Shown: positions 1-10,520 of the stretch, piece by piece
Layout of the letters: the number at the start of each line of letters is the position of its first letter
Position numbering within the stretch: position 1 is the stretch's first letter
Virus record (IMG/VR): IMGVR_UViG_3300020420_001038
Location: 1-64,000 of that record
DNA: 64,000 nucleotides
Strand: one strand, 5' to 3'
Source: a virus
Position numbers and translations under genes: made by a program
The notes under the pieces: generated by a model
The model's database searches: none
What the model was told of the DNA's origin: nothing
What the model saw: only the letters and a program-made list of their open reading frames with translations

Positions 1-499
1 TCTTCATTTCAATATTAATTACTGGTCGATATCGTGCAATAGTATCGAGTCCACCCAACAGCACACGATCTTCATATCCGTCCACATCAATCTTTATAAA
101 ATCTACACAGTCTAACTTATAGGAATCTAGTGTGTGCAACTGTATGTCACCCTCTGTATCATCACGTGACAGATTTTGCATGGATCGATTTTTAATATAG
201 TGTGTTGTATGTGTTGTGTGGCTCAGACCTACTTCATGCAATATTGCATTGGAATTGCTTTTAATGTTCATGTGCCAACAACGAGTGAACATGGGATTGG
301 GTTCAAAACACACCACTCGCTCAAAGTCCTTTTGTAGAAAACGTGTCCACATTCCCACATTGGCGCCAACATCAACACAGGTACGCCAGTCAGTAACAAA
401 TTTTAATGCACTATCACGTAGGCCTTTTTGTCCATCACCTTTACCCATGGTGACCAAATTATGATCTGCATCGGGTATGTAAAAGTCAGTGTCCCTCAT
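1..499 (-). CDS. FkbM-family SAM-dependent methyltransferase (runs off the window edge)
   Basis: Not in the ORF track; translated by hand. ATG at 499 overlaps the upstream stop (ATGA). Motifs CVDVGANVGMW, VVCFEPNP and VDFIKIDVDGYE. Confidence 0.85.
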   Translation of the reverse strand, partial: MRDTDFYIPDADHNLVTMGKGDGQKGLRDSALKFVTDWRTCVDVGANVGMWTRFLQKDFERVVCFEPNPMFTRCWHMNIKSNSNAILHEVGLSHTTHTTHYIKNRSMQNLSRDDTEGDIQLHTLDSYKLDCVDFIKIDVDGYEDRVLLGGLDTIARYRPVINIEMK

Positions 500-1227
500 G
501 ATGAAACCCAATTTCTAGTGCCGGTAAATCTGCTTATCATGTTTATGCTCCATCGAGGGTGTTCTGCATCTTGCCTGGGACTTACACTATGCTGTGTTTC
601 TTCACCGTTCCAAAACATCACAAAATTATTTGATACATAAGGACAAGTTTTTACTATTGGTCCTGGATTAGAATATTCTCTGACAGAATTCATGCCAAGA
701 CCTTTTGGTTTATGAATACAAAAATCTCCTCCTGTACTTTTGTCTTCCGGTGATTTAAGGTAAAGTAGTCCTGCATATATTTCTTTTGGGTTATCTGTGT
801 GTGGTATTTTATTACTAACATTATTTACAGGTGGATGTTTTACAAAACTAAAATCAGTAAAGTAACTGCACGGTGCAGGATTGTTTATGTCGGCCTTGAT
901 CAATTGGTCTCTTGGTATTGCAAGATTTTTAGATTTTTTTTCAAAGGCATCAAAAACTTTATCAACAAATTGTTTGCTAGTATGATATTCAATAAACTCC
1001 TTCCAGATGTTGCTGACTGGATACTGTTCTTCGTGTAATTCTTTCAATAGCCAAGTTAGTTTCCCATGCTTATCAACTTGTTGTTGTTTATCTAATCTAT
1101 CGTTTGGTAATGTTTGTAAAAGTTCGTTGTGTACTTTTTCAGGCAACGCATTTTCAATTATGATATAGGGCCATGGGTCGTATTCTACTTTTTTCAGATT
1201 TTGGAGTACACAAAGTTCGCTCATCAC
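496..1227 (-). CDS. 2OG-Fe(II) oxygenase superfamily protein
   Basis: HTD...H facial triad (PHTDN, TQHSV), GGDF strand and terminal RWS motif. Confidence 0.8.
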   Translation of the reverse strand: MMSELCVLQNLKKVEYDPWPYIIIENALPEKVHNELLQTLPNDRLDKQQQVDKHGKLTWLLKELHEEQYPVSNIWKEFIEYHTSKQFVDKVFDAFEKKSKNLAIPRDQLIKADINNPAPCSYFTDFSFVKHPPVNNVSNKIPHTDNPKEIYAGLLYLKSPEDKSTGGDFCIHKPKGLGMNSVREYSNPGPIVKTCPYVSNNFVMFWNGEETQHSVSPRQDAEHPRWSINMISRFTGTRNWVSS

Positions 1228-1233
1228 AAATAT

Positions 1234-1920
1234 TTATAATGCGACTTTATGTGCTTCCCTCAATTTACTTTTTGGTATTGTTATATCTCTTTTATCACAT
1301 GCCGCACTAATGACGCAAGGATCACATTCCGGTGATCTCGATTTACAAACTTTTTTGGCATGTGTAATGAGCCACATGTGAGCACCATACTTATATTTGT
1401 CAGGAGTTGTCTTGTTCACTGTGATCGATGCTTTGCCTTCATCTAAACTGTCTGCCCAACCCAATCTCCACAACATTCTAAACACGTGAGTATCAACTGC
1501 TATATTAGGACTTCCAAAAACAAATCTCATCACTATATCTGAACTTTTCCTACCTACACCGGGTAAAGACATTAATTCTTTTTGTGTCTGCGGTACTTTA
1601 CTATTAAATTTCTCTATCAACAATTTGCTTGTTGCAAGAATGTTTTTTGATTTTGCATTGTGCAAACCTGCAGGACGGATTGCTTCTATTACTTCTTCCT
1701 GTGACAATTTAATCATTTCTTCAGGAGTATTAGCAAGAGCGAATAATTGCTGACAGGCTACTGCCGTCCTTGCGTCTTGACTCTGTGCTGATAGCATTAC
1801 TCCAATTAGGCTGGTGTATGCTTTTGAGTAAATTTTTGCTTTAGGTTTCCTATTTGAATAATGAGGATACTTTGCACTTAATTTTTCATAGATGAAATTG
1901 ATATCATTATTGCTCTTCAT
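1234..1920 (-). CDS. nth: Endonuclease III (HhH-GPD DNA glycosylase, 4Fe-4S)
   Basis: LSAQSQD, LPGVGRKS HhH motif, VDTHVFR, and C-x6-C-x2-C-x5-C cluster motif. Confidence 0.93.
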   Translation of the reverse strand: MKSNNDINFIYEKLSAKYPHYSNRKPKAKIYSKAYTSLIGVMLSAQSQDARTAVACQQLFALANTPEEMIKLSQEEVIEAIRPAGLHNAKSKNILATSKLLIEKFNSKVPQTQKELMSLPGVGRKSSDIVMRFVFGSPNIAVDTHVFRMLWRLGWADSLDEGKASITVNKTTPDKYKYGAHMWLITHAKKVCKSRSPECDPCVISAACDKRDITIPKSKLREAHKVAL

Positions 1921-3340
1921 CTGAGTGCAGTTCGTTTAGTAGTTGTCTTAGTTTTCCGCCTTCAACAGTTGCTTTTACTTTGCCAATATCATCACCTTTG
2001 GTTGGATCTGGCACATTAGGTTGTGCATCTGTTTTGTCTGTGCTTATTTTAGATTTTTGTTTTAATGAATCATATATTGTACTACGTTGTTTGTCAAACT
2101 GTTTGTATTCTGGATCGTCTGCCAAGTCTCTGATTCTTAAACTATCCACATCAAATTCCAAATCAACCTTCTGTCCAACACCAGAACTGGATCTAGTTTT
2201 CATAAATTGTATTTGATACCTTCCTCTTTCCTTCATTGCTCTAGATGTAAAGATACCAATGACGTTATCTGCTGTCTGTATTTTTGAAAGTCCACCTGCT
2301 ATGTGCGAGTGATCAAATTCTATTTCTTCAACACTGGCTCTGTTAAGTTGTGATGCAGTTGCCAATAACATTTGGGACTCTACTGCAAAGTTTCTTAGTT
2401 CCTCAGAAACATACTTGTCTTTTATAAACAAATCTGCAGGACTAATACGTTTGCTTTTTGGCATCATGAGATCCAAATAGTCAATCAATATACAGTCAAT
2501 CTTCTTCTTCGTCTTAAGTTCTAATTCCTTAATGTATGTTCTAATATCCAATATTGTGCTTCCACTTGGCAAATATTTTATGTGCAATTCCCCAGACTTT
2601 TTCTTCATCATTTTTACTTTCATCTCGACATTGTCAATTTCTGGAAAAACTTTTTTAGTTGGAATGTTAGTCATCATTGCATCAAGTCTCATCGCTGTAA
2701 GTTCTTCACTTAATTCAAAAGAGATATACACTGTGTTCAAACCAGCAGTTGACCAATTCACTGCAAGATTCTGTAAGAACAAACTTTTACCTGCGCCTGA
2801 TCCACCTGCAAAAATGTTTAGTTCACCTCGGTTAAATCCACCGAACAGTTTCTTATCGAGATTTGGCCAACCTGTGCTGACTTGTCCATTGGAGTTTTTA
2901 AGTTTCTCCAATCTACCTTTTGGATCTTCAAAGTAGTCTGTACCTAGGTCCTTCGTCAAGCCAATACTTACTGCCTGCTTGACCATGTCCTCAACAGGAG
3001 CATAGTCTCCCTTTTCAAGTAAGTCCGCTGATTGTAATATTGCTTGTTCGAGTGCCTTGTGCCTAGAAAATGTTTCAAACTCATCTAACAGCCAGTTGAA
3101 GTGGCTTGGATCTAAATCTTTTGCTGATTTTAATTTTATATCATGTTTTGCGTTTACCTGTTCAACATCTGGCATGACTTTGTATTCTTCCATGTAGTCC
3201 TTGATAAATTTGGCAACTGGCTGTAATTTTCTCTCAAAACTATTTGGATTGAAAATGTTTTGTGCTCGTGCAAATGATTCTGCATCCGCCAGCATCATCT
3301 CGATGTATAATTTTTGTACGTCAAAACTATATTCAGCCAT
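1907..3340 (-). CDS. DnaB-like replicative helicase (T4 gp41-like)
   Basis: Walker A GGSGAGKS, ISFELSE, LIDYLDL, ASQLNR and KTR motifs. Confidence 0.92.
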   Translation of the reverse strand: MAEYSFDVQKLYIEMMLADAESFARAQNIFNPNSFERKLQPVAKFIKDYMEEYKVMPDVEQVNAKHDIKLKSAKDLDPSHFNWLLDEFETFSRHKALEQAILQSADLLEKGDYAPVEDMVKQAVSIGLTKDLGTDYFEDPKGRLEKLKNSNGQVSTGWPNLDKKLFGGFNRGELNIFAGGSGAGKSLFLQNLAVNWSTAGLNTVYISFELSEELTAMRLDAMMTNIPTKKVFPEIDNVEMKVKMMKKKSGELHIKYLPSGSTILDIRTYIKELELKTKKKIDCILIDYLDLMMPKSKRISPADLFIKDKYVSEELRNFAVESQMLLATASQLNRASVEEIEFDHSHIAGGLSKIQTADNVIGIFTSRAMKERGRYQIQFMKTRSSSGVGQKVDLEFDVDSLRIRDLADDPEYKQFDKQRSTIYDSLKQKSKISTDKTDAQPNVPDPTKGDDIGKVKATVEGGKLRQLLNELHSDEEQ

Positions 3341-3576: not shown

Positions 3577-3734
3577 TATTTAAAAAACCTTTTAAATTTA
3601 TCAATTGACTTTTGTAATGGGGCATACACTTGTTCAATAAAAATAATATGTTTAGACAGTTTTTTATCTAACTCAGTAATTATTTTTTTTAATTCTTTTA
3701 TTTCTTTTTGTAATTTTACTACTTCCTTATCCAT
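3576..3734 (-). CDS. Small coiled-coil hypothetical protein (52 aa)
   Basis: Translated by hand (MDKEVVKLQKEIKELKK...). Fills the primase to DUF2061 gap exactly, with overlapping stop/start (TAATG). Confidence 0.7.
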   Translation of the reverse strand: MDKEVVKLQKEIKELKKIITELDKKLSKHIIFIEQVYAPLQKSIDKFKRFFK

Positions 3735-4740
3735 ACATTTTCCTTTTCAAATCAATTTTAAATTTGTTAGATTCTGTGCTTTTCAAAATTGACTGTATTG
3801 TAAATAGCCTTCCATATTTTAACACAGCATCGGCCACATCGTCAACATCTTCTGCCCATTCTGGAAAAGCAACACTCCAACCAAATTCTATTGCTTGGTT
3901 AATAAGTTTTTCACCTGGTGCGTCTCTGTCCGGCACTACAATAATTTTTTTTCCTAATCCTTCGATCAATTCTTTTTGTGTTTCATTTATCTCCGACCCT
4001 AGTATGCTAACTCCAGAAACGGTAATAGCATCAAATGGTCCTTCTGTCACTATTACAAATTTTCTATCCCAGGTCTGTGCATCCATATTGAAAACATAAC
4101 CTGGCTGTACTTCTGTAACATATTTTATTTTCTCAGCCTTTTCAAATAGTCTGCCAGTATACCCTACCACCTCGCCTCTCCAATAAAAAGGAATGATCAC
4201 TCTTTGATCAAAATTAAAATAAAAATCAGGTGAGTACATGAAATCGTACCAACTAGGATCTATTCCTCTTGCTTTTAGATAATTCAATAGTGCATCAATT
4301 TTTTTATACTGAGGTGCAGTAAGATCCTTGGCAATGTATTTTTCTAACCAAATATCTAATTTGTGTGTGTTCTTTGGAGTTTGCTTTTTTACAAAATTTA
4401 CGAATTTTTTCTTTTCATACTTTACATCACTCTCTTCATGACGCATGGCCTCTATTGCTAGTTTTTTAATTGTGTCATCCGGTATGCCTATGTAACTCAT
4501 AAAAGTTCGCATACGTTGTGTAAGCCTCCTGCCAGTAACATAAGATGCTTTGTATCCACAGTTGAAACAGTGATAACTTACTGTTCCATCAGCACTTGTC
4601 ATTATACCACCTCGTTTCTTTCTATCTTGTGATTCTCCATTGTGTATGCAACAAGGTGCATTAAAGGATATCCAACCACTTGGAGTTTTCTTTTGCCCAG
4701 AAGGCAAGGATGTCAGAATAGTCGACTGGATCAGGTTCAT
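3727..4740 (-). CDS. DNA primase (T4 gp61-like)
   Basis: Zn domain (APCC...YHCFNC), IIPF...GYTGR, TOPRIM motifs EGPFD and DRD. Confidence 0.9.
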   Translation of the reverse strand: MNLIQSTILTSLPSGQKKTPSGWISFNAPCCIHNGESQDRKKRGGIMTSADGTVSYHCFNCGYKASYVTGRRLTQRMRTFMSYIGIPDDTIKKLAIEAMRHEESDVKYEKKKFVNFVKKQTPKNTHKLDIWLEKYIAKDLTAPQYKKIDALLNYLKARGIDPSWYDFMYSPDFYFNFDQRVIIPFYWRGEVVGYTGRLFEKAEKIKYVTEVQPGYVFNMDAQTWDRKFVIVTEGPFDAITVSGVSILGSEINETQKELIEGLGKKIIVVPDRDAPGEKLINQAIEFGWSVAFPEWAEDVDDVADAVLKYGRLFTIQSILKSTESNKFKIDLKRKMYG

Positions 4741-4747
4741 ACCCTAT

Positions 4748-4776
4748 ATTTTACTGTCTATAAAGGATTTTGTCAA
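4748..4776 (-). promoter_or_regulatory. Sigma70-type promoter for primase
   Basis: TTGACA-17 bp-TAAAAT, with ATG 7 nt downstream of the -10 box. Confidence 0.75.
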
Positions 4777-5533
4777 TCTTTCCAGTATTACCAGAATCGT
4801 TGTCCCAACTAAACCTAACATTATGGTAAACGCCGGTAAAATTCAAAGTTGATGCCGCGGATGCATCTGTATACGTAGCAGATGTCACTGTAAAATAATC
4901 GCTGTCGCTTGGTGTACTTGCCATGGTTCCTTGTACGATAAGTTTACCACTAAATGCGTTTGGATACACAGCGATCGTATGTAATGCTTTATTATTGTTT
5001 GTTCCTGGCCTTGCATCTATAGAACTTGAGGAAAACTGCAAAGGACCTCCGGCTTGAGTGAAGTTGCTGACTTCAACACTTGAAACAAATTCAGGATAGG
5101 CTCCGTCTACTAGTTCAATAGTGCCAGCCGCCGCATATCCAGTGTCTGCATATGTCACCTCCCTACTTCCGTCGGACTTTACTTCTCTAACAGAAAAATT
5201 GTAAAATTTTGCATCTAAGGATAGAAGATCACCCTCGGTAATTGTTGTACTTGCATCACCCTTGGTGCTGACTGTACTTCCATCATCGAGAATAGTCAAA
5301 GTCTTTGTAAGCACTGCTTTTTTGCTCTCTGTATCAATGATATTCAATTCATATGTCTTTGATGTTATATCTTGGGCCTTTTGATCCTCGTTCTTGAATG
5401 TGAACGAAATGGGATTCGATACTCCTCTATGAAGTGTTAGTCTTCTATCGTACACTTTTGAATTCCTTCCGTGATAACCACTTTGGTAACATATTACCAA
5501 CTGATCTAGTAAATACCGTTGTATTGTTTGCAT
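4751..5533 (-). CDS. Hypothetical beta-rich protein, possibly virion-associated
   Basis: Long Ser/Thr-rich ORF with TAAATA just upstream. Confidence 0.6.
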   Translation of the reverse strand: MQTIQRYLLDQLVICYQSGYHGRNSKVYDRRLTLHRGVSNPISFTFKNEDQKAQDITSKTYELNIIDTESKKAVLTKTLTILDDGSTVSTKGDASTTITEGDLLSLDAKFYNFSVREVKSDGSREVTYADTGYAAAGTIELVDGAYPEFVSSVEVSNFTQAGGPLQFSSSSIDARPGTNNNKALHTIAVYPNAFSGKLIVQGTMASTPSDSDYFTVTSATYTDASAASTLNFTGVYHNVRFSWDNDSGNTGKIDKILYRQ

Positions 5534-5565: not shown

Positions 5566-5940
5566 ATGAACGAACTTTTTAAGACATTAAGAGATAAATT
5601 TCCATTTTTGAGCCTTATTCGTAAGGGCGATTTGGAATATGTGGGGATAGTGCAGAACCAAGACCCAAATGTAATCAGTTTCTACGATTACGGACGTATA
5701 ATGCAACCGCAAGACAAAATGAGATATTTGAAATGTGGTGAGATTTGGTGGTATGAGTCCAATAGAAAATTACCAATAAATATTTTTCTCAAAGGTGATT
5801 TCCGTTATTTCAGAACAACATTAGTAACTCTTAATTCAAAAGATGTGGAAATAGTCGAAGGTCCAACTGTTAAGTTATCTGAAATTTCGAAGAAACGGGT
5901 AAAAAGAAGAACTATACAGTTGGTAAGACGTCCGGTCTAA
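5566..5940 (+). CDS. Hypothetical phage protein
   Basis: 124-aa ORF with basic C-terminus, divergent from the previous gene. Confidence 0.65.
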   Translation: MNELFKTLRDKFPFLSLIRKGDLEYVGIVQNQDPNVISFYDYGRIMQPQDKMRYLKCGEIWWYESNRKLPINIFLKGDFRYFRTTLVTLNSKDVEIVEGPTVKLSEISKKRVKRRTIQLVRRPV

Positions 5941-6092
5941 TCTTTTTTCTTTTCAGGAAGTATAGCACCAGTTGTAAGATAGTGTTGTGTTAACGGACTA
6001 TCTGGCTGATAACCATATGGATCCTTTTTAGAAGTAGTAGATTTTTGTTTACGTTTTTTTCGGGAAGTCTTCTTTTTCTTTTGATTGTGCAT
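5937..6092 (-). CDS. Small, highly basic protein (51 aa)
   Basis: Translated by hand (MHNQKKKKTSRKKRKQKSTTSKKDPYGYQPDSPLTQHYLTTGAILPEKKKD). TAAATA lies 8 nt upstream and the ORF fills the intergenic gap. Confidence 0.55.
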   Translation of the reverse strand: MHNQKKKKTSRKKRKQKSTTSKKDPYGYQPDSPLTQHYLTTGAILPEKKKD

Positions 6093-6663
6093 CAAAACTA
6101 TATTTATGCTTTTGCATTAAATTCATCTGCACAACAATGGCATGGGCATATGCAACTGCGTGTGATTTTTTAAAGAAGTAACTGCCATCCGTTGGTTTAA
6201 TCCAAACTTCTTGCAATATATCTTTCCAATCCTTATACATCAAATGTCTTTTTGCAGGACGTATAATTGCCAACACAGCCGCAAGTTGTTCTATATTCTT
6301 TGGTTCTAGTTGTGAAACAATTTTAAAGTGTCCATTCAAATGGAATAATTGATCAACCGTTGTAGCATCTTTCAATATATCCCAATCCGGTTCCTGTATC
6401 ATAAGTTCAACAAGTTCCTGTTCAGATTTTATATCTTTATAGATGTTTACGTTTAAACAATCTATCTTGAAGTATCCTCTGTCCTCTGCTTTTTTATAAT
6501 CTAAGGTTGCGTGTCCGGTTATTGGGTGCTCCGGTACAGCATGAAAGTATACACCTGTTTTGTGTTTTTCGGTTTTCTCTTCTTTAATAATAGTGGCAGG
6601 AGTATGTTTGAATAATTTAAGTACTCCGTCTCTGTCAAAAAAGTCTATGTCAACATCAGGCAT
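6049..6663 (-). CDS. Miniature DnaE / DNA polymerase III alpha-like (family C) protein
   Basis: PDVDIDF, H-x-x-GV, YFKIDCL, LAIIRP and FKKSHAVAY match DnaE PDxDxDF, HAAGV, KFDFL, ALxRP and FNKSHSAAY. Confidence 0.8.
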   Translation of the reverse strand: MPDVDIDFFDRDGVLKLFKHTPATIIKEEKTEKHKTGVYFHAVPEHPITGHATLDYKKAEDRGYFKIDCLNVNIYKDIKSEQELVELMIQEPDWDILKDATTVDQLFHLNGHFKIVSQLEPKNIEQLAAVLAIIRPAKRHLMYKDWKDILQEVWIKPTDGSYFFKKSHAVAYAHAIVVQMNLMQKHKYSFDAQSKEKEDFPKKT

Positions 6664-6776
6664 TATATTGTTCCTTGTAAAAAATTTAAAAGTAGTGCAA
6701 CTAGATATATAAATCCAATTATACTTGCAATACCAAGTAAGTTTTTTTTAGTGAAAAGTTTTCTTAGATAAAACAT
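6663..6776 (-). CDS. Small single-pass membrane protein (37 aa)
   Basis: Translated by hand (MFYLRKLFTKKNLLGIASIIGFIYLVALLLNFLQGTI); coupled to both neighbours. Confidence 0.55.
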   Translation of the reverse strand: MFYLRKLFTKKNLLGIASIIGFIYLVALLLNFLQGTI

Positions 6777-8595: not shown

Positions 8596-9076
8596 CCTGT
8601 TCGCACTGTCGAGAAATATCTTTTACAAAGTAAGCACATACTGGTTTAGGACCCTTTGTCAAAGGCACTGCGAGTAGTTGTCCAGACTTAATTTTCGGGA
8701 AGTACCATTTCACTTCTGTGTAGATATCTACAACATCTATAGGATAGAAATCCGGTTTAGAACTGCTTAAAGGATTGAAAGTAAAAGCGTCAAATCCTCT
8801 ATCATTTAAACTTGTTATTGGAAGCACATGCATTTCTGGCTGTCCTTGTTCTCCAATTAACATTTTCCAATCTAATGGCATTTTAATTTTGTGTTTTCCT
8901 ATTTCAAGCACTGCCGCCGGGGCGTTGAAACTTTCTAAGAATATTAATGGTATGTAGAAAAAATCTGGCTCTTCTGGATTAGTGTTATCTAAAACTGCAA
9001 AACGCAATTTTTCATCTACGTATTCTGGAATTCTTTCCAAAGTATAGGTCTGGTCATCAAGAGTTAGTATTTTCAT
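8573..9076 (-). CDS. Hypothetical all-beta protein (possible degenerate Hint-like fold)
   Basis: 167-aa ORF coupled to uvsW; the fold guess rests on beta-strand pattern only. Confidence 0.6.
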   Translation of the reverse strand: MKILTLDDQTYTLERIPEYVDEKLRFAVLDNTNPEEPDFFYIPLIFLESFNAPAAVLEIGKHKIKMPLDWKMLIGEQGQPEMHVLPITSLNDRGFDAFTFNPLSSSKPDFYPIDVVDIYTEVKWYFPKIKSGQLLAVPLTKGPKPVCAYFVKDISRQCEQVDYGSVW

Positions 9077-10520
9077 AATCTACTTTCTCTATATTATACG
9101 GATAATTTGCCTCTTTGTAAAACTTTTTTCTTTGGGTAAGATGTCTTTTCGCAAATTTGCAACTGCTGGTAATATCCCAAATTTGTACATTGTCTTTATC
9201 TTCTGCCTTACGTATGCCTCTTCCTATGCTTTGAATTACTCTTACAAAAGACTTGCCAGGTTCAATAAGAACAAGGTTGAATATCCTAGGAATATTAATA
9301 CCAACAGAAGCCACTCCATATGTGGCAATAATGATTTTACTTTTTGATGTAGACACTTCATCGTAGTGTTCTTTCCTTTCTAATGTTTTTGTAGATCCTG
9401 ATATAAAGACAGAATCTTTTAATTTTTTTTCTAATATTTCGCCTGCAGATATTCTGTCGACTAAAATTAATGTGTTGCCAGATGTTGATATGTGTTCAAT
9501 AGTTTGAGCAATCCAAGACATTCTGTTGCTATCCGTAGTTAGCCATTTCAATTCTTCTTGATAGTTTTTAAACTCCACTGTGTCTAAGGTCTGCAAAACA
9601 TTGACATGACAGTTTGCTAATACTCCTTTATCCTGTAATTCTTTTGCTGGAATTTTATGAGTTACTTCGCCCAGTGAAACTTTAATCCCCATGTATTCAT
9701 ATTCTTCTTTGGGTATGGTACCTGTAAGTCCCCAACGTATTTGACAATGTGCGAGAGGACCGGTTAACAATCTTTTCAACACATCTGCTTTCGCCATGTG
9801 TACTTCGTCGACTATAATAGTGTTTATACCACTGCAGAATTCTTTAAATTCTGTTGAGTGTTCGTTTTTTGCTTTTTTCTCTAACACGTTTAAACTTTGC
9901 CAAGTAGCAATCGTGTTATATCTTCCTACTTCCTTTCGGTCACCGTAATAAACACCTGTATCTAATTCACAAGCAACGAAGTCTTCTTCAGTTTGTGTTA
10001 CTAGACTTTTGTTTGGCACTATTGTTAATGTTCTACCGTAAGGCTCGACTAATCTACACAACGATGCTGTGATAATAGTTTTTCCGGCACCGGTTGCAAT
10101 TTCCTGTATGCTTTGTGTTTCTTCTAGAAATTTATTAATAGTTTTTACTTGATAATCTCTCAATTCTATAGGTTGTCCAGCACAAGGATGATTTTCCGGC
10201 CATTTAATATCCGACAAATAATCTTTGTCTATCTTTTTAAATTCAACATCAAAGTTTGGTCTTTGGTCATCGAGATCAACATAAACACCGCCGTCTTCAA
10301 GAATTGGCAGTATCTTTTCAACGAGATGAAGATAAGTTGAGCCACCTAATCCAAAGAATGCAATCTTACCGTCCCATCTTCCTAGTTTAACTGATGGTAA
10401 ATGATATGCGTATGGAACTTGATATTTAAATTTTTGATGTAGACGTTGTCTCCATTTCAAGTCTAAATTTTCAAATTTGACATTTACCTGATCTTTTATT
10501 ACAAGTTTGCAACTGCTCAT
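9057..10520 (-). CDS. uvsW: SF2 DNA helicase UvsW
   Basis: LRDYQ, ATGAGKT, VDEVH, GLTGT and QSIGRGIR motifs. Confidence 0.88.
   Translation of the reverse strand: MSSCKLVIKDQVNVKFENLDLKWRQRLHQKFKYQVPYAYHLPSVKLGRWDGKIAFFGLGGSTYLHLVEKILPILEDGGVYVDLDDQRPNFDVEFKKIDKDYLSDIKWPENHPCAGQPIELRDYQVKTINKFLEETQSIQEIATGAGKTIITASLCRLVEPYGRTLTIVPNKSLVTQTEEDFVACELDTGVYYGDRKEVGRYNTIATWQSLNVLEKKAKNEHSTEFKEFCSGINTIIVDEVHMAKADVLKRLLTGPLAHCQIRWGLTGTIPKEEYEYMGIKVSLGEVTHKIPAKELQDKGVLANCHVNVLQTLDTVEFKNYQEELKWLTTDSNRMSWIAQTIEHISTSGNTLILVDRISAGEILEKKLKDSVFISGSTKTLERKEHYDEVSTSKSKIIIATYGVASVGINIPRIFNLVLIEPGKSFVRVIQSIGRGIRKAEDKDNVQIWDITSSCKFAKRHLTQRKKFYKEANYPYNIEKVDYENTNS

Follow-up and report, generated by a model that had tools for sequence, protein, structure and literature searches.

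A probable C-terminal unit of a split minimal DNA polymerase III alpha in an uncultured marine clade of T4-related jumbo phages

The stretch of DNA analysed here (hereinafter, the window) comprises positions 1 to 64,000 of the IMG/VR virus record IMGVR_UViG_3300020420_001038, and the gene under study is a single minus-strand open reading frame (ORF) of 204 amino acids (aa) that starts with ATG (Table 1); the plus-strand frame across the same positions is interrupted by stops throughout. An initial annotation, made from the sequence alone, had described the product as a miniature family C polymerase derived from DnaE, and all the motifs on which it relied are in the translation, namely PDVDIDF (residues 2-8), KIDCL some 60 residues further on (66-70), IIRP (133-136) and FKKSHAVAY (164-172). 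The key residues are D3, D5 and D7 of the PDVDIDF strand, D68 of KIDCL, which corresponds to the third catalytic carboxylate and is separated from D5 by 63 residues, and the IIRP and KKSH motifs of reduced fingers. The ORF opens at M-PDVDIDF, that is, directly at the aspartate strand, and is preceded by an in-frame stop. We consider it probable, at roughly 0.8, that this ORF encodes the C-terminal unit (C-unit) of a two-piece minimal DNA polymerase III alpha (Pol III alpha) of T4-related (group 2.2) jumbo phages, the other piece (N-unit) being the product of a separate gene.

The ORF had also been characterized as intact and coupled to its neighbor. The first part holds, given that the frame is intact in 80 of 80 close IMG/VR relatives; the second does not, because the ATG is preceded by a 112-nt gap that leaves neither overlap nor coupling with the upstream ORF. 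At its 3′ end (6049-6075), the window gene encodes 8 additional C-terminal residues: codon 197, normally a stop, is a sense codon here, which extends the protein to 204 aa, whereas the length is 196 aa in 79 of the 80 close relatives and 197 aa in the remaining one. Versions of 204 aa are present in the protein database as well (P0001-P0038).

The C-unit belongs to PHROG 11778 ('DNA polymerase'), with residues 3-188 matching profile positions 8-196 of 197 at E 2e-63, and members of this family are labeled 'DNA polymerase' or 'DnaE-like' in both GenBank and PHROGs. The family is large, and the resemblance goes well beyond chance: at least 6558 relatives with E <= 0.001, out of 6589 scored candidates, were found in a set of 5.8 billion proteins, 444 cluster representatives match at the same cut-off, and at least 599 IMG/VR contigs encode a C-unit, the family being very common in ocean metagenomes. 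Among 50,697 isolate phage records, a tblastn search detected the C-unit in 96, all with less than 60 % identity, and megablast of the C-unit region against isolate phages gave no match. Among the matches listed, the isolate records are jumbo or jumbo-related phages throughout, including Atu_ph07 and Phosso (51-53 % identity), the PA5oct group (46 %), the RaK2/121Q/GAP32/CBB group (34-37 %), XacN1 and SCTP-2. The window C-unit thus represents an abundant uncultured marine clade, with at most 53 % identity to the copy of any isolate.

Derivation of the protein from DnaE is supported by both profile and structure comparisons. A profile of 81 C-unit homologs (31-52 % identical to the window query), the set that also underlies the conservation figures given below, matched nine distinct sequences in PDB, every one of them a Pol III alpha (best E 5.2e-6). 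In these alignments, K66 and D68 fall on K553 and D555 of Escherichia coli Pol III alpha, IIRP falls on a ..FRPG segment that ends at residue 641, and K166-S167-H168 fall on K758-S759-H760. Superposition of a structural model on DnaE and PolC, suggested in the initial annotation as a check, gave a congruent picture. The AlphaFold2 model of the C-unit (mean predicted local distance difference test score, pLDDT, 95.9; predicted template modelling score 0.87) was compared, using VIA, with 48,161 representative PDB chains, and the top seven chains were all C-family polymerases with Z scores of 5.9-9.3, as against 4.7 for the best unrelated chain. The best match was PolC of G. kaustophilus (3f2b, Z 9.3, root-mean-square deviation 4.2, 193 residues aligned), followed by Taq (2hpi, Z 8.8), Mycobacterium tuberculosis DnaE1 (5lew, Z 8.8) and E. 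coli (5m1s, Z 7.3), and then by 5fku (E. coli, Z 7.0), 9qpc (Z 6.5) and 7pu7 (Z 5.9). In a Foldseek search with the same model, C-family polymerases occupied 17 of the 18 best rows (best E 6e-4).

The same alignments delimit what has been lost. They start at chain residue 971 in PolC, 461 in Taq and 401 in E. coli, stretches that we take to be the sites of the catalytic aspartate pairs, and some 196 model residues are distributed along E. coli residues 401-817, leaving about 220 E. coli residues unmatched. There is no counterpart in the C-unit for E. coli residues ~440-538 (the thumb) or ~642-738 (part of the fingers), nor anything that matches the E. coli chain before 401, including the PHP domain, or beyond ~817. 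Compared with DnaE and PolC (2HNH/5M1S, 2HPI, 3F2B), therefore, the catalytic strand, the third carboxylate and the finger motifs align, with Z scores of 7.3-9.3 over 193-200 residues, but a chain of 204 aa faces chains of 900-1200 aa and is devoid of the PHP domain, the N-terminal half of the palm and the clamp-binding, helix-hairpin-helix (HhH), OB and tau-binding parts. The absence of the PHP, thumb, clamp-binding and OB parts had been anticipated correctly from the sequence. The accompanying proposal that the palm and part of the fingers are retained holds for the finger motifs but only for the back half of the palm: the 204-aa ORF lacks the N-terminal Pol-beta-like half and, with it, the triphosphate-binding GRGSS loop, and accordingly contains only half of an active site.

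What remains is highly conserved. D3, D5, K66, D68 and P136 are invariant among the 81 homologs, so that all three predicted catalytic aspartates are retained as originally noted, and D7, R135, K138, K165 and H168 are conserved in at least 90 % of the sequences. The 80 close relatives all keep D3, D5, D7, K66, D68, R135, P136, K165 and H168. The ratio of nonsynonymous to synonymous substitution rates (dN/dS) was obtained for 32 of 80 comparisons, those in which dS is defined; its median is 0.048 and its highest value 0.080. Synonymous sites are saturated (median proportion of synonymous differences 0.76). The C-unit is thus under strong purifying selection, and neither decay of the gene nor loss of the aspartates was observed.

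The other half of the palm is encoded elsewhere in the genomes of relatives. PF07733 does not match the C-unit, and a search with this Pfam profile yielded one further small ORF each in phages 121Q (180 aa) and Phosso (177 aa). These ORFs hold ...GRGSSVAS... and end in ...EFLKW and ...EFLN, respectively, which is exactly the point where the C-unit starts and where DnaE runs into PDxDxD. The N-unit family corresponds to phrog_11127 and consists of proteins of 155-185 aa, each the product of a separate, distant gene, with at least 7074 members among 8000 scored candidates. We extracted 46 N-unit ORFs from 60 IMG/VR N-unit loci, and all 46 end 1-9 residues past EF[LI]; GxGRGSS is invariant in the 38-row N-unit alignment. 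No C-unit lies within 8 kb of any of the 60 loci, which means that the two genes are never neighbors. These observations run counter to the original notion of a mini polymerase with a whole palm and favor another option that the initial annotation had offered, namely that the protein is one subunit of a split enzyme. The two families also occur head to tail in a single chain, P0184 (375 aa), in which phrog_11127 (8-180) is fused to phrog_11778 (190-374), a configuration that lends weak support to the pairing. Directly 3′ of the N-unit, 121Q, Phosso and the IMG/VR record G009 share a small gene (L004:1810-2154, L003:1761-2222 and L139:8300-8785, respectively) whose product has a common ...N/D-A-R/E-G-D/N...G-G... 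pattern close to the N-terminus and ends in a charged tail of low complexity.

To model the complex, the N-unit was represented by an alignment headed by the G009 sequence and the C-unit by one headed by the window sequence. The interaction scores (ipSAE) were 0.90, 0.91 and 0.90, compared with 0.00 for the best of three controls, with partner pLDDT of at least 86 and at least 93 % of the contacts common between runs. The score mark used is reached by 58 of 80 solved complexes and by 2 of 110 mismatched pairs, figures that apply only roughly here, where our own alignments were used. In the modelled interface, residues 119-132 of the N-unit, which include the GRGSS loop, face the aspartate strand (residues 2-9) and the KSH helix (165-178) of the C-unit, which, as far as the model goes, is how a rebuilt DnaE active site is expected to look. 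Under the mechanism that we propose, the C-unit would supply the metal-binding D3/D5 strand, the third carboxylate D68 and the reduced fingers (R135-P136 and K166-S167-H168), whereas the remainder of the Pol-beta-like palm, with its GxGRGSS loop, would come from the N-unit (PHROG 11127); packing of this loop on the aspartate strand and the KSH helix would create one complete nucleotidyltransferase active site.

The distribution of the two genes is in line with such pairing. Among isolate phages, the numbers of records with the C-unit and the N-unit agree by host genus (Escherichia 34/34, Erwinia 8/8, Salmonella 8/8, Yersinia 4/4, Agrobacterium 2/2, Klebsiella 11/10), with the qualification that the N-unit list also includes full-length phage DnaEs. 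Among C-unit-bearing IMG/VR records, the N-unit was found in G006, G008 and G034, each rated 100 % complete, and also in G035 (83 % complete), G036 (71 %), G009 (66 %), G037 (60 %) and G039 (55 %). The N-unit is therefore present in 3 of 3 complete records and in 8 of the 10 that are at least 55 % complete, at a distance of 84-184 kb from the C-unit; in one comparison of C-unit records, it was detected in five of six of at least 55 % completeness and in none of four of at most 39 %. The co-occurrence also bears on the possibility that the protein is a non-catalytic remnant with a new role, for example as a decoy or adaptor for replisome components of host or phage, in which the aspartates would serve only in metal binding or structure. 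Although the extreme reduction of the protein would suit such a role, and polymerase activity is so far a prediction, both halves are present in all three complete genomes and a decoy needs no intact two-part active site; moreover, the three carboxylates, K66 and the RP and KSH motifs are invariant or nearly so across homologs of 31-52 % identity, and dN/dS is ~0.05. We regard this alternative as very unlikely.

Several results weigh against the two-piece enzyme. At the level of the C-unit itself, a Pfam scan produced nothing above the cut-off, with only PF17657 (finger domain) at E 0.03, and phmmer found no match among PDB sequences. The N-unit in the modelled complex is a stand-in taken from G009, whose C-unit is 54 % identical to that of the window, and the high score indicates likeness rather than binding because both halves of such a gene are similar to DnaE chains of known structure. 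The P0184 fusion is a singleton on a contig of 2,415 b, with no relatives in IMG/VR or in the search for longer C-unit proteins. The literature searched yielded no bench test of the split minimal Pol III, which does not prove that there is none. The N-unit of the window's exact lineage is one that we infer from relatives. The complete IMG/VR record of the window (G000) spans 86,865 b and is rated 24 % complete, and neither an N-unit nor a PF07733 match was found in it. The N-unit was sought with PF07733, the Phosso N-unit, the 38-row profile, an unfiltered local hidden Markov model and a GRGS motif scan in G000, the related records G001 and G002, 21 further clade records and G029, and it turned up in 0 of the 24 clade records (25-122 kb) and was not found in G029 (280 kb, 79 % complete) or in G038 (56 % complete) either. 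Among the 60 N-unit loci, no gene is more than 64 % identical to the window's clade. No GRGS-like ORF was found in G000, and BLASTN and BLASTP comparisons of the 60 loci with G000-G002 revealed no overlap.

Taken at face value, the absence of the N-unit from the 24 clade records, the record of the window itself and the 280 kb of G029, along with strong purifying selection on the C-unit in exactly this clade, would fit a stand-alone mini enzyme, that is, a 204-aa protein that acts as a nucleotidyltransferase alone or as a homo-oligomer after loss of the N-unit in the marine clade. However, all the clade records that lack the N-unit are fragments. In the nearest large relatives, whose C-units are 51-58 % identical to that of the window, the N-unit and the C-unit are 163-184 kb apart, a distance that exceeds the length of any clade fragment, so that the absence is expected. 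In G034, the C-unit (11.7 kb) is followed by a family-B polymerase (PolB, 167 kb) and then by the N-unit (192 kb). The C-unit of G029 lies at 98.5 kb and its PolB at 260-261 kb; an N-unit located ~24 kb past PolB, as in G034, would be expected near 285 kb, but the contig stops at 280,019, about 5 kb short of that point. The presence of the N-unit tracks record completeness, the Pol-beta-like fold needs the GS-loop half that is missing from the ORF, and the surfaces buried against the N-unit in the model (2-9 and 165-178) are the most conserved ones. Given the N-C distance and the location of the expected site in G029, we rejected an orphan C-unit as the principal interpretation and consider stand-alone activity highly improbable.

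G000, G001 (121.8 kb) and G002 (91.4 kb) align collinearly; their nucleotide identity is 67-84 % and their guanine-plus-cytosine contents are 37, 33 and 43 %, respectively. G001, which is collinear with the window over ~80 kb, and G012 are fragments of T4-like jumbo phages that IMG/VR tags as 'provirus'; in the case of G001, this tag looks like a misclassification or the result of a chimeric end.

Returning to the two-piece polymerase, a search of the genome for the complementary fragment and for a family B polymerase, as recommended in the initial annotation, had a divided outcome: neither was found in the 86,865 b of the window's 24 %-complete record, and both are present in complete relatives. 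PolB frames of 887-1013 aa were identified in G006, G008, G009, 121Q, Phosso, G029 and G034 (7 of 10 records); no PolB was found in G035, G001 and G002, all of which are incomplete, and all the relatives' records rated complete carry the gene. Among the relatives, the expectation that T4-like phages use a family B replicase is thus borne out, and the mini Pol III accompanies the T4-type PolB rather than replacing it, as is the case in the phages described by Iyer et al. (2021; PMC7824862).

The genes around the C-unit point to a replication context (Table 1). The module runs from a UvsW-like helicase through several unknown genes to the C-unit, a virion protein, the primase, the DnaB-like helicase and nth, and Phosso and 121Q share the succession of C-unit, virion protein, primase and helicase.

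Table 1. Features of the window at and around the C-unit gene
Feature	Position	Strand	Basis or remark
FkbM-like gene	2-511		after nth in the window
2OG-Fe(II) oxygenase	496-1227		after nth in the window
nth, endonuclease III-like HhH-GPD glycosylase	1234-1920	minus	PF00730 at E 1.6e-18
DnaB/gp41-like replicative helicase	1907..3340	minus	synteny and a Walker A motif read in the translation
DnaG-type primase	3727..4740	minus	phrog_47 at E 5.7e-41
Virion protein	4751-5533		between C-unit and primase in gene order
Convergent 124-aa gene, PHROG 11637	5566..5940	plus	directly downstream of the C-unit, opposite strand
Probable C-unit gene, split minimal Pol III alpha, PHROG 11778	6049..6663	minus	ORF listing, profile, fold, conservation
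C-unit leader, intergenic, 112 nt	6664..6775	minus	AAGGA ~10 nt before ATG, read from the sequence
UvsW-like SF2 (superfamily 2) helicase	9057..10520	minus	phrog_16 at E 8e-80

To judge from the sequences, the N-unit and the C-unit together would form an active DNA polymerase of low processivity, the latter property because the pair has no thumb, clamp motif, OB or PHP domain. This polymerase would act beside the family B replicase, and most plausibly would carry out primer extension or repair synthesis at the primase-helicase because the position of the C-unit is fixed beside the genes for these proteins. The Pol-beta-like superfamily also includes template-independent nucleotidyltransferases and synthases of signalling nucleotides, and a two-piece enzyme of either kind, rather than a polymerase, would sit well with the lack of thumb, clamp-binding and OB parts and with the possession of a PolB by the phage. 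The retained RP and KSH motifs, however, are those of the DnaE/PolC fingers, the whole model superposes on the polymerase palm and fingers, and the gene has a constant location, with the UvsW-like helicase gene to one side and the primase and helicase genes to the other. Furthermore, no effector or sensor was named in a PHROGs scan of the neighbors, a search that did not extend to any defense-system library, and nothing came to light in favor of the signal-nucleotide synthase mentioned in the initial annotation. A non-polymerase function of the pair therefore appears quite unlikely.

A second gene is tightly linked to the C-unit, namely the convergent gene of PHROG 11637. Of 83 C-unit loci, which span 46-88 % identity, 80 have a homolog in the same place and convergent orientation; at the other three, less than 250 nt of sequence is left, so that the gene is present in 80 of 80 cases where there is room for it. 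Among isolate phages, it is found in 88 records (compared with 96 for the C-unit), with the same genus tallies and adjacent coordinates. The protein has an invariant WW..NR.P signature and a basic KR.KR C-terminal tail, and its model (pLDDT 87.4) gave no significant fold match (best VIA Z 4.3; best Foldseek E 0.27), Sm- or SH3-like small barrels reaching Z ~3 over 45-50 residues. A Pfam scan of the protein returned no match, and a search of the ESM Atlas returned unnamed viral clusters only (0.77-0.78). This linkage points to the PHROG 11637 protein as a candidate accessory part of the C-unit. One could go further and envisage a three-part machine in which the N-unit and the C-unit form a core of ~360 aa, the smallest known for a C-family polymerase, and the PHROG 11637 protein serves as a nucleic-acid-binding or processivity subunit that replaces the thumb and OB parts, the whole extending primase primers before hand-off to PolB, an elaboration that we consider speculative and rather unlikely. 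The linkage is not mentioned in the main-text passages of Iyer et al. (2021; PMC7824862) that deal with the split enzyme.

Sister records of the window contain another C-family gene. Immediately behind nth and some 6 kb downstream of the C-unit, they encode a contiguous DnaE-like protein without a PHP domain (565-603 aa). The gene is found in G002 (L044:16091-17815 = L085:1408-3132) and also in G013, G016, G017, G024, G028, G031 and G033, altogether in 10 of the 29 clade records examined (8/24 and 2/5), with two copies cut by contig ends; it was not found in the complete relatives G006 and G008, nor in the window. Like the split enzyme, this protein is a C-family core without PHP that has the motifs GSAGSS, PDVDIDF, KVD, IRP and RAHA. 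In contrast to the split enzyme, it consists of one chain, is recognized by PF07733 (E 7.6e-43) and by PF17657, and belongs with the phage DnaE family PHROG 405 (E 1e-68); its similarity to the C-unit is marginal (BLASTP E 0.02). For the 574-aa version in G002, we discarded two explanations: an assembly chimera, given the recurrence of the gene in 10 of 29 records and the collinearity of G002 with G001 on both sides, and a close paralog or unsplit form of the mini enzyme, given the BLASTP E value and the membership in PHROG 405. Its adjacency to nth hints at a repair pairing.

After the DnaE-like gene, at ~64.2-68.8 kb of G002 (L165), five genes resemble a binding-protein-dependent ABC transporter set. 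Based on the first 50 residues of each product, they encode a 418-aa protein whose start resembles a signal peptide, a pair of hydrophobic proteins similar to permeases and another pair similar to ATPases. These genes are embedded in a phage contig whose flanks on either side are collinear with G001 and, judging by these short reads of the translations, may constitute an auxiliary metabolic island.

The proposed presence in one replisome of two DNA polymerases, one of them of family C and distinct from the main replicase, is not without parallel. Bacillus subtilis has a two-polymerase replisome with DnaE and PolC, in which a second C-family polymerase likewise stands beside the main replicase, and it offers a possible analog for primer extension and hand-off; it differs in that the main replicase of the phages is of family B and their C-family enzyme is split, minimal and predicted.

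The split minimal Pol III itself has been described previously (Iyer, Anantharaman, Krishnan, Burroughs, Aravind 2021, Viruses 13:63, PMC7824862), and the passages of that article devoted to it argue that the split form resembles an ancestral one. In their account, as in the relatives examined here, a C-terminal Mg- and template-binding unit is separate from a distant N-terminal nucleoside triphosphate-binding unit and occurs beside PolB. The phage group is the same, the window C-unit matching those of RaK2/121Q, Atu_ph07, PA5oct and XacN1. The window copy differs in that it comes from an uncultured marine clade, has the 8 extra C-terminal residues and has an N-unit that is predicted from relatives. 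A passage of the CBB genome paper (PMC5259590) notes a truncated Pol III alpha-like protein of 172 aa, and the passages returned from the PaBG paper and from a 2026 survey of bacterial polymerases are silent on the split family. The window gene thus adds to an already described, computationally predicted family and does not define a new one.

For the window alone, the outcome is a corrected annotation, together with the warning that the ORF encodes half an active site. If the pair is active, it would be by far the smallest C-family DNA polymerase core and would provide a minimal model for the function and evolution of bacterial replicases; the phages in question would then possess a replisome that combines a family B replicase with a family C helper. 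Activity in a cultured relative would annotate thousands of genes at once, encoding at least 6,500 C-unit and at least 7,000 N-unit proteins.

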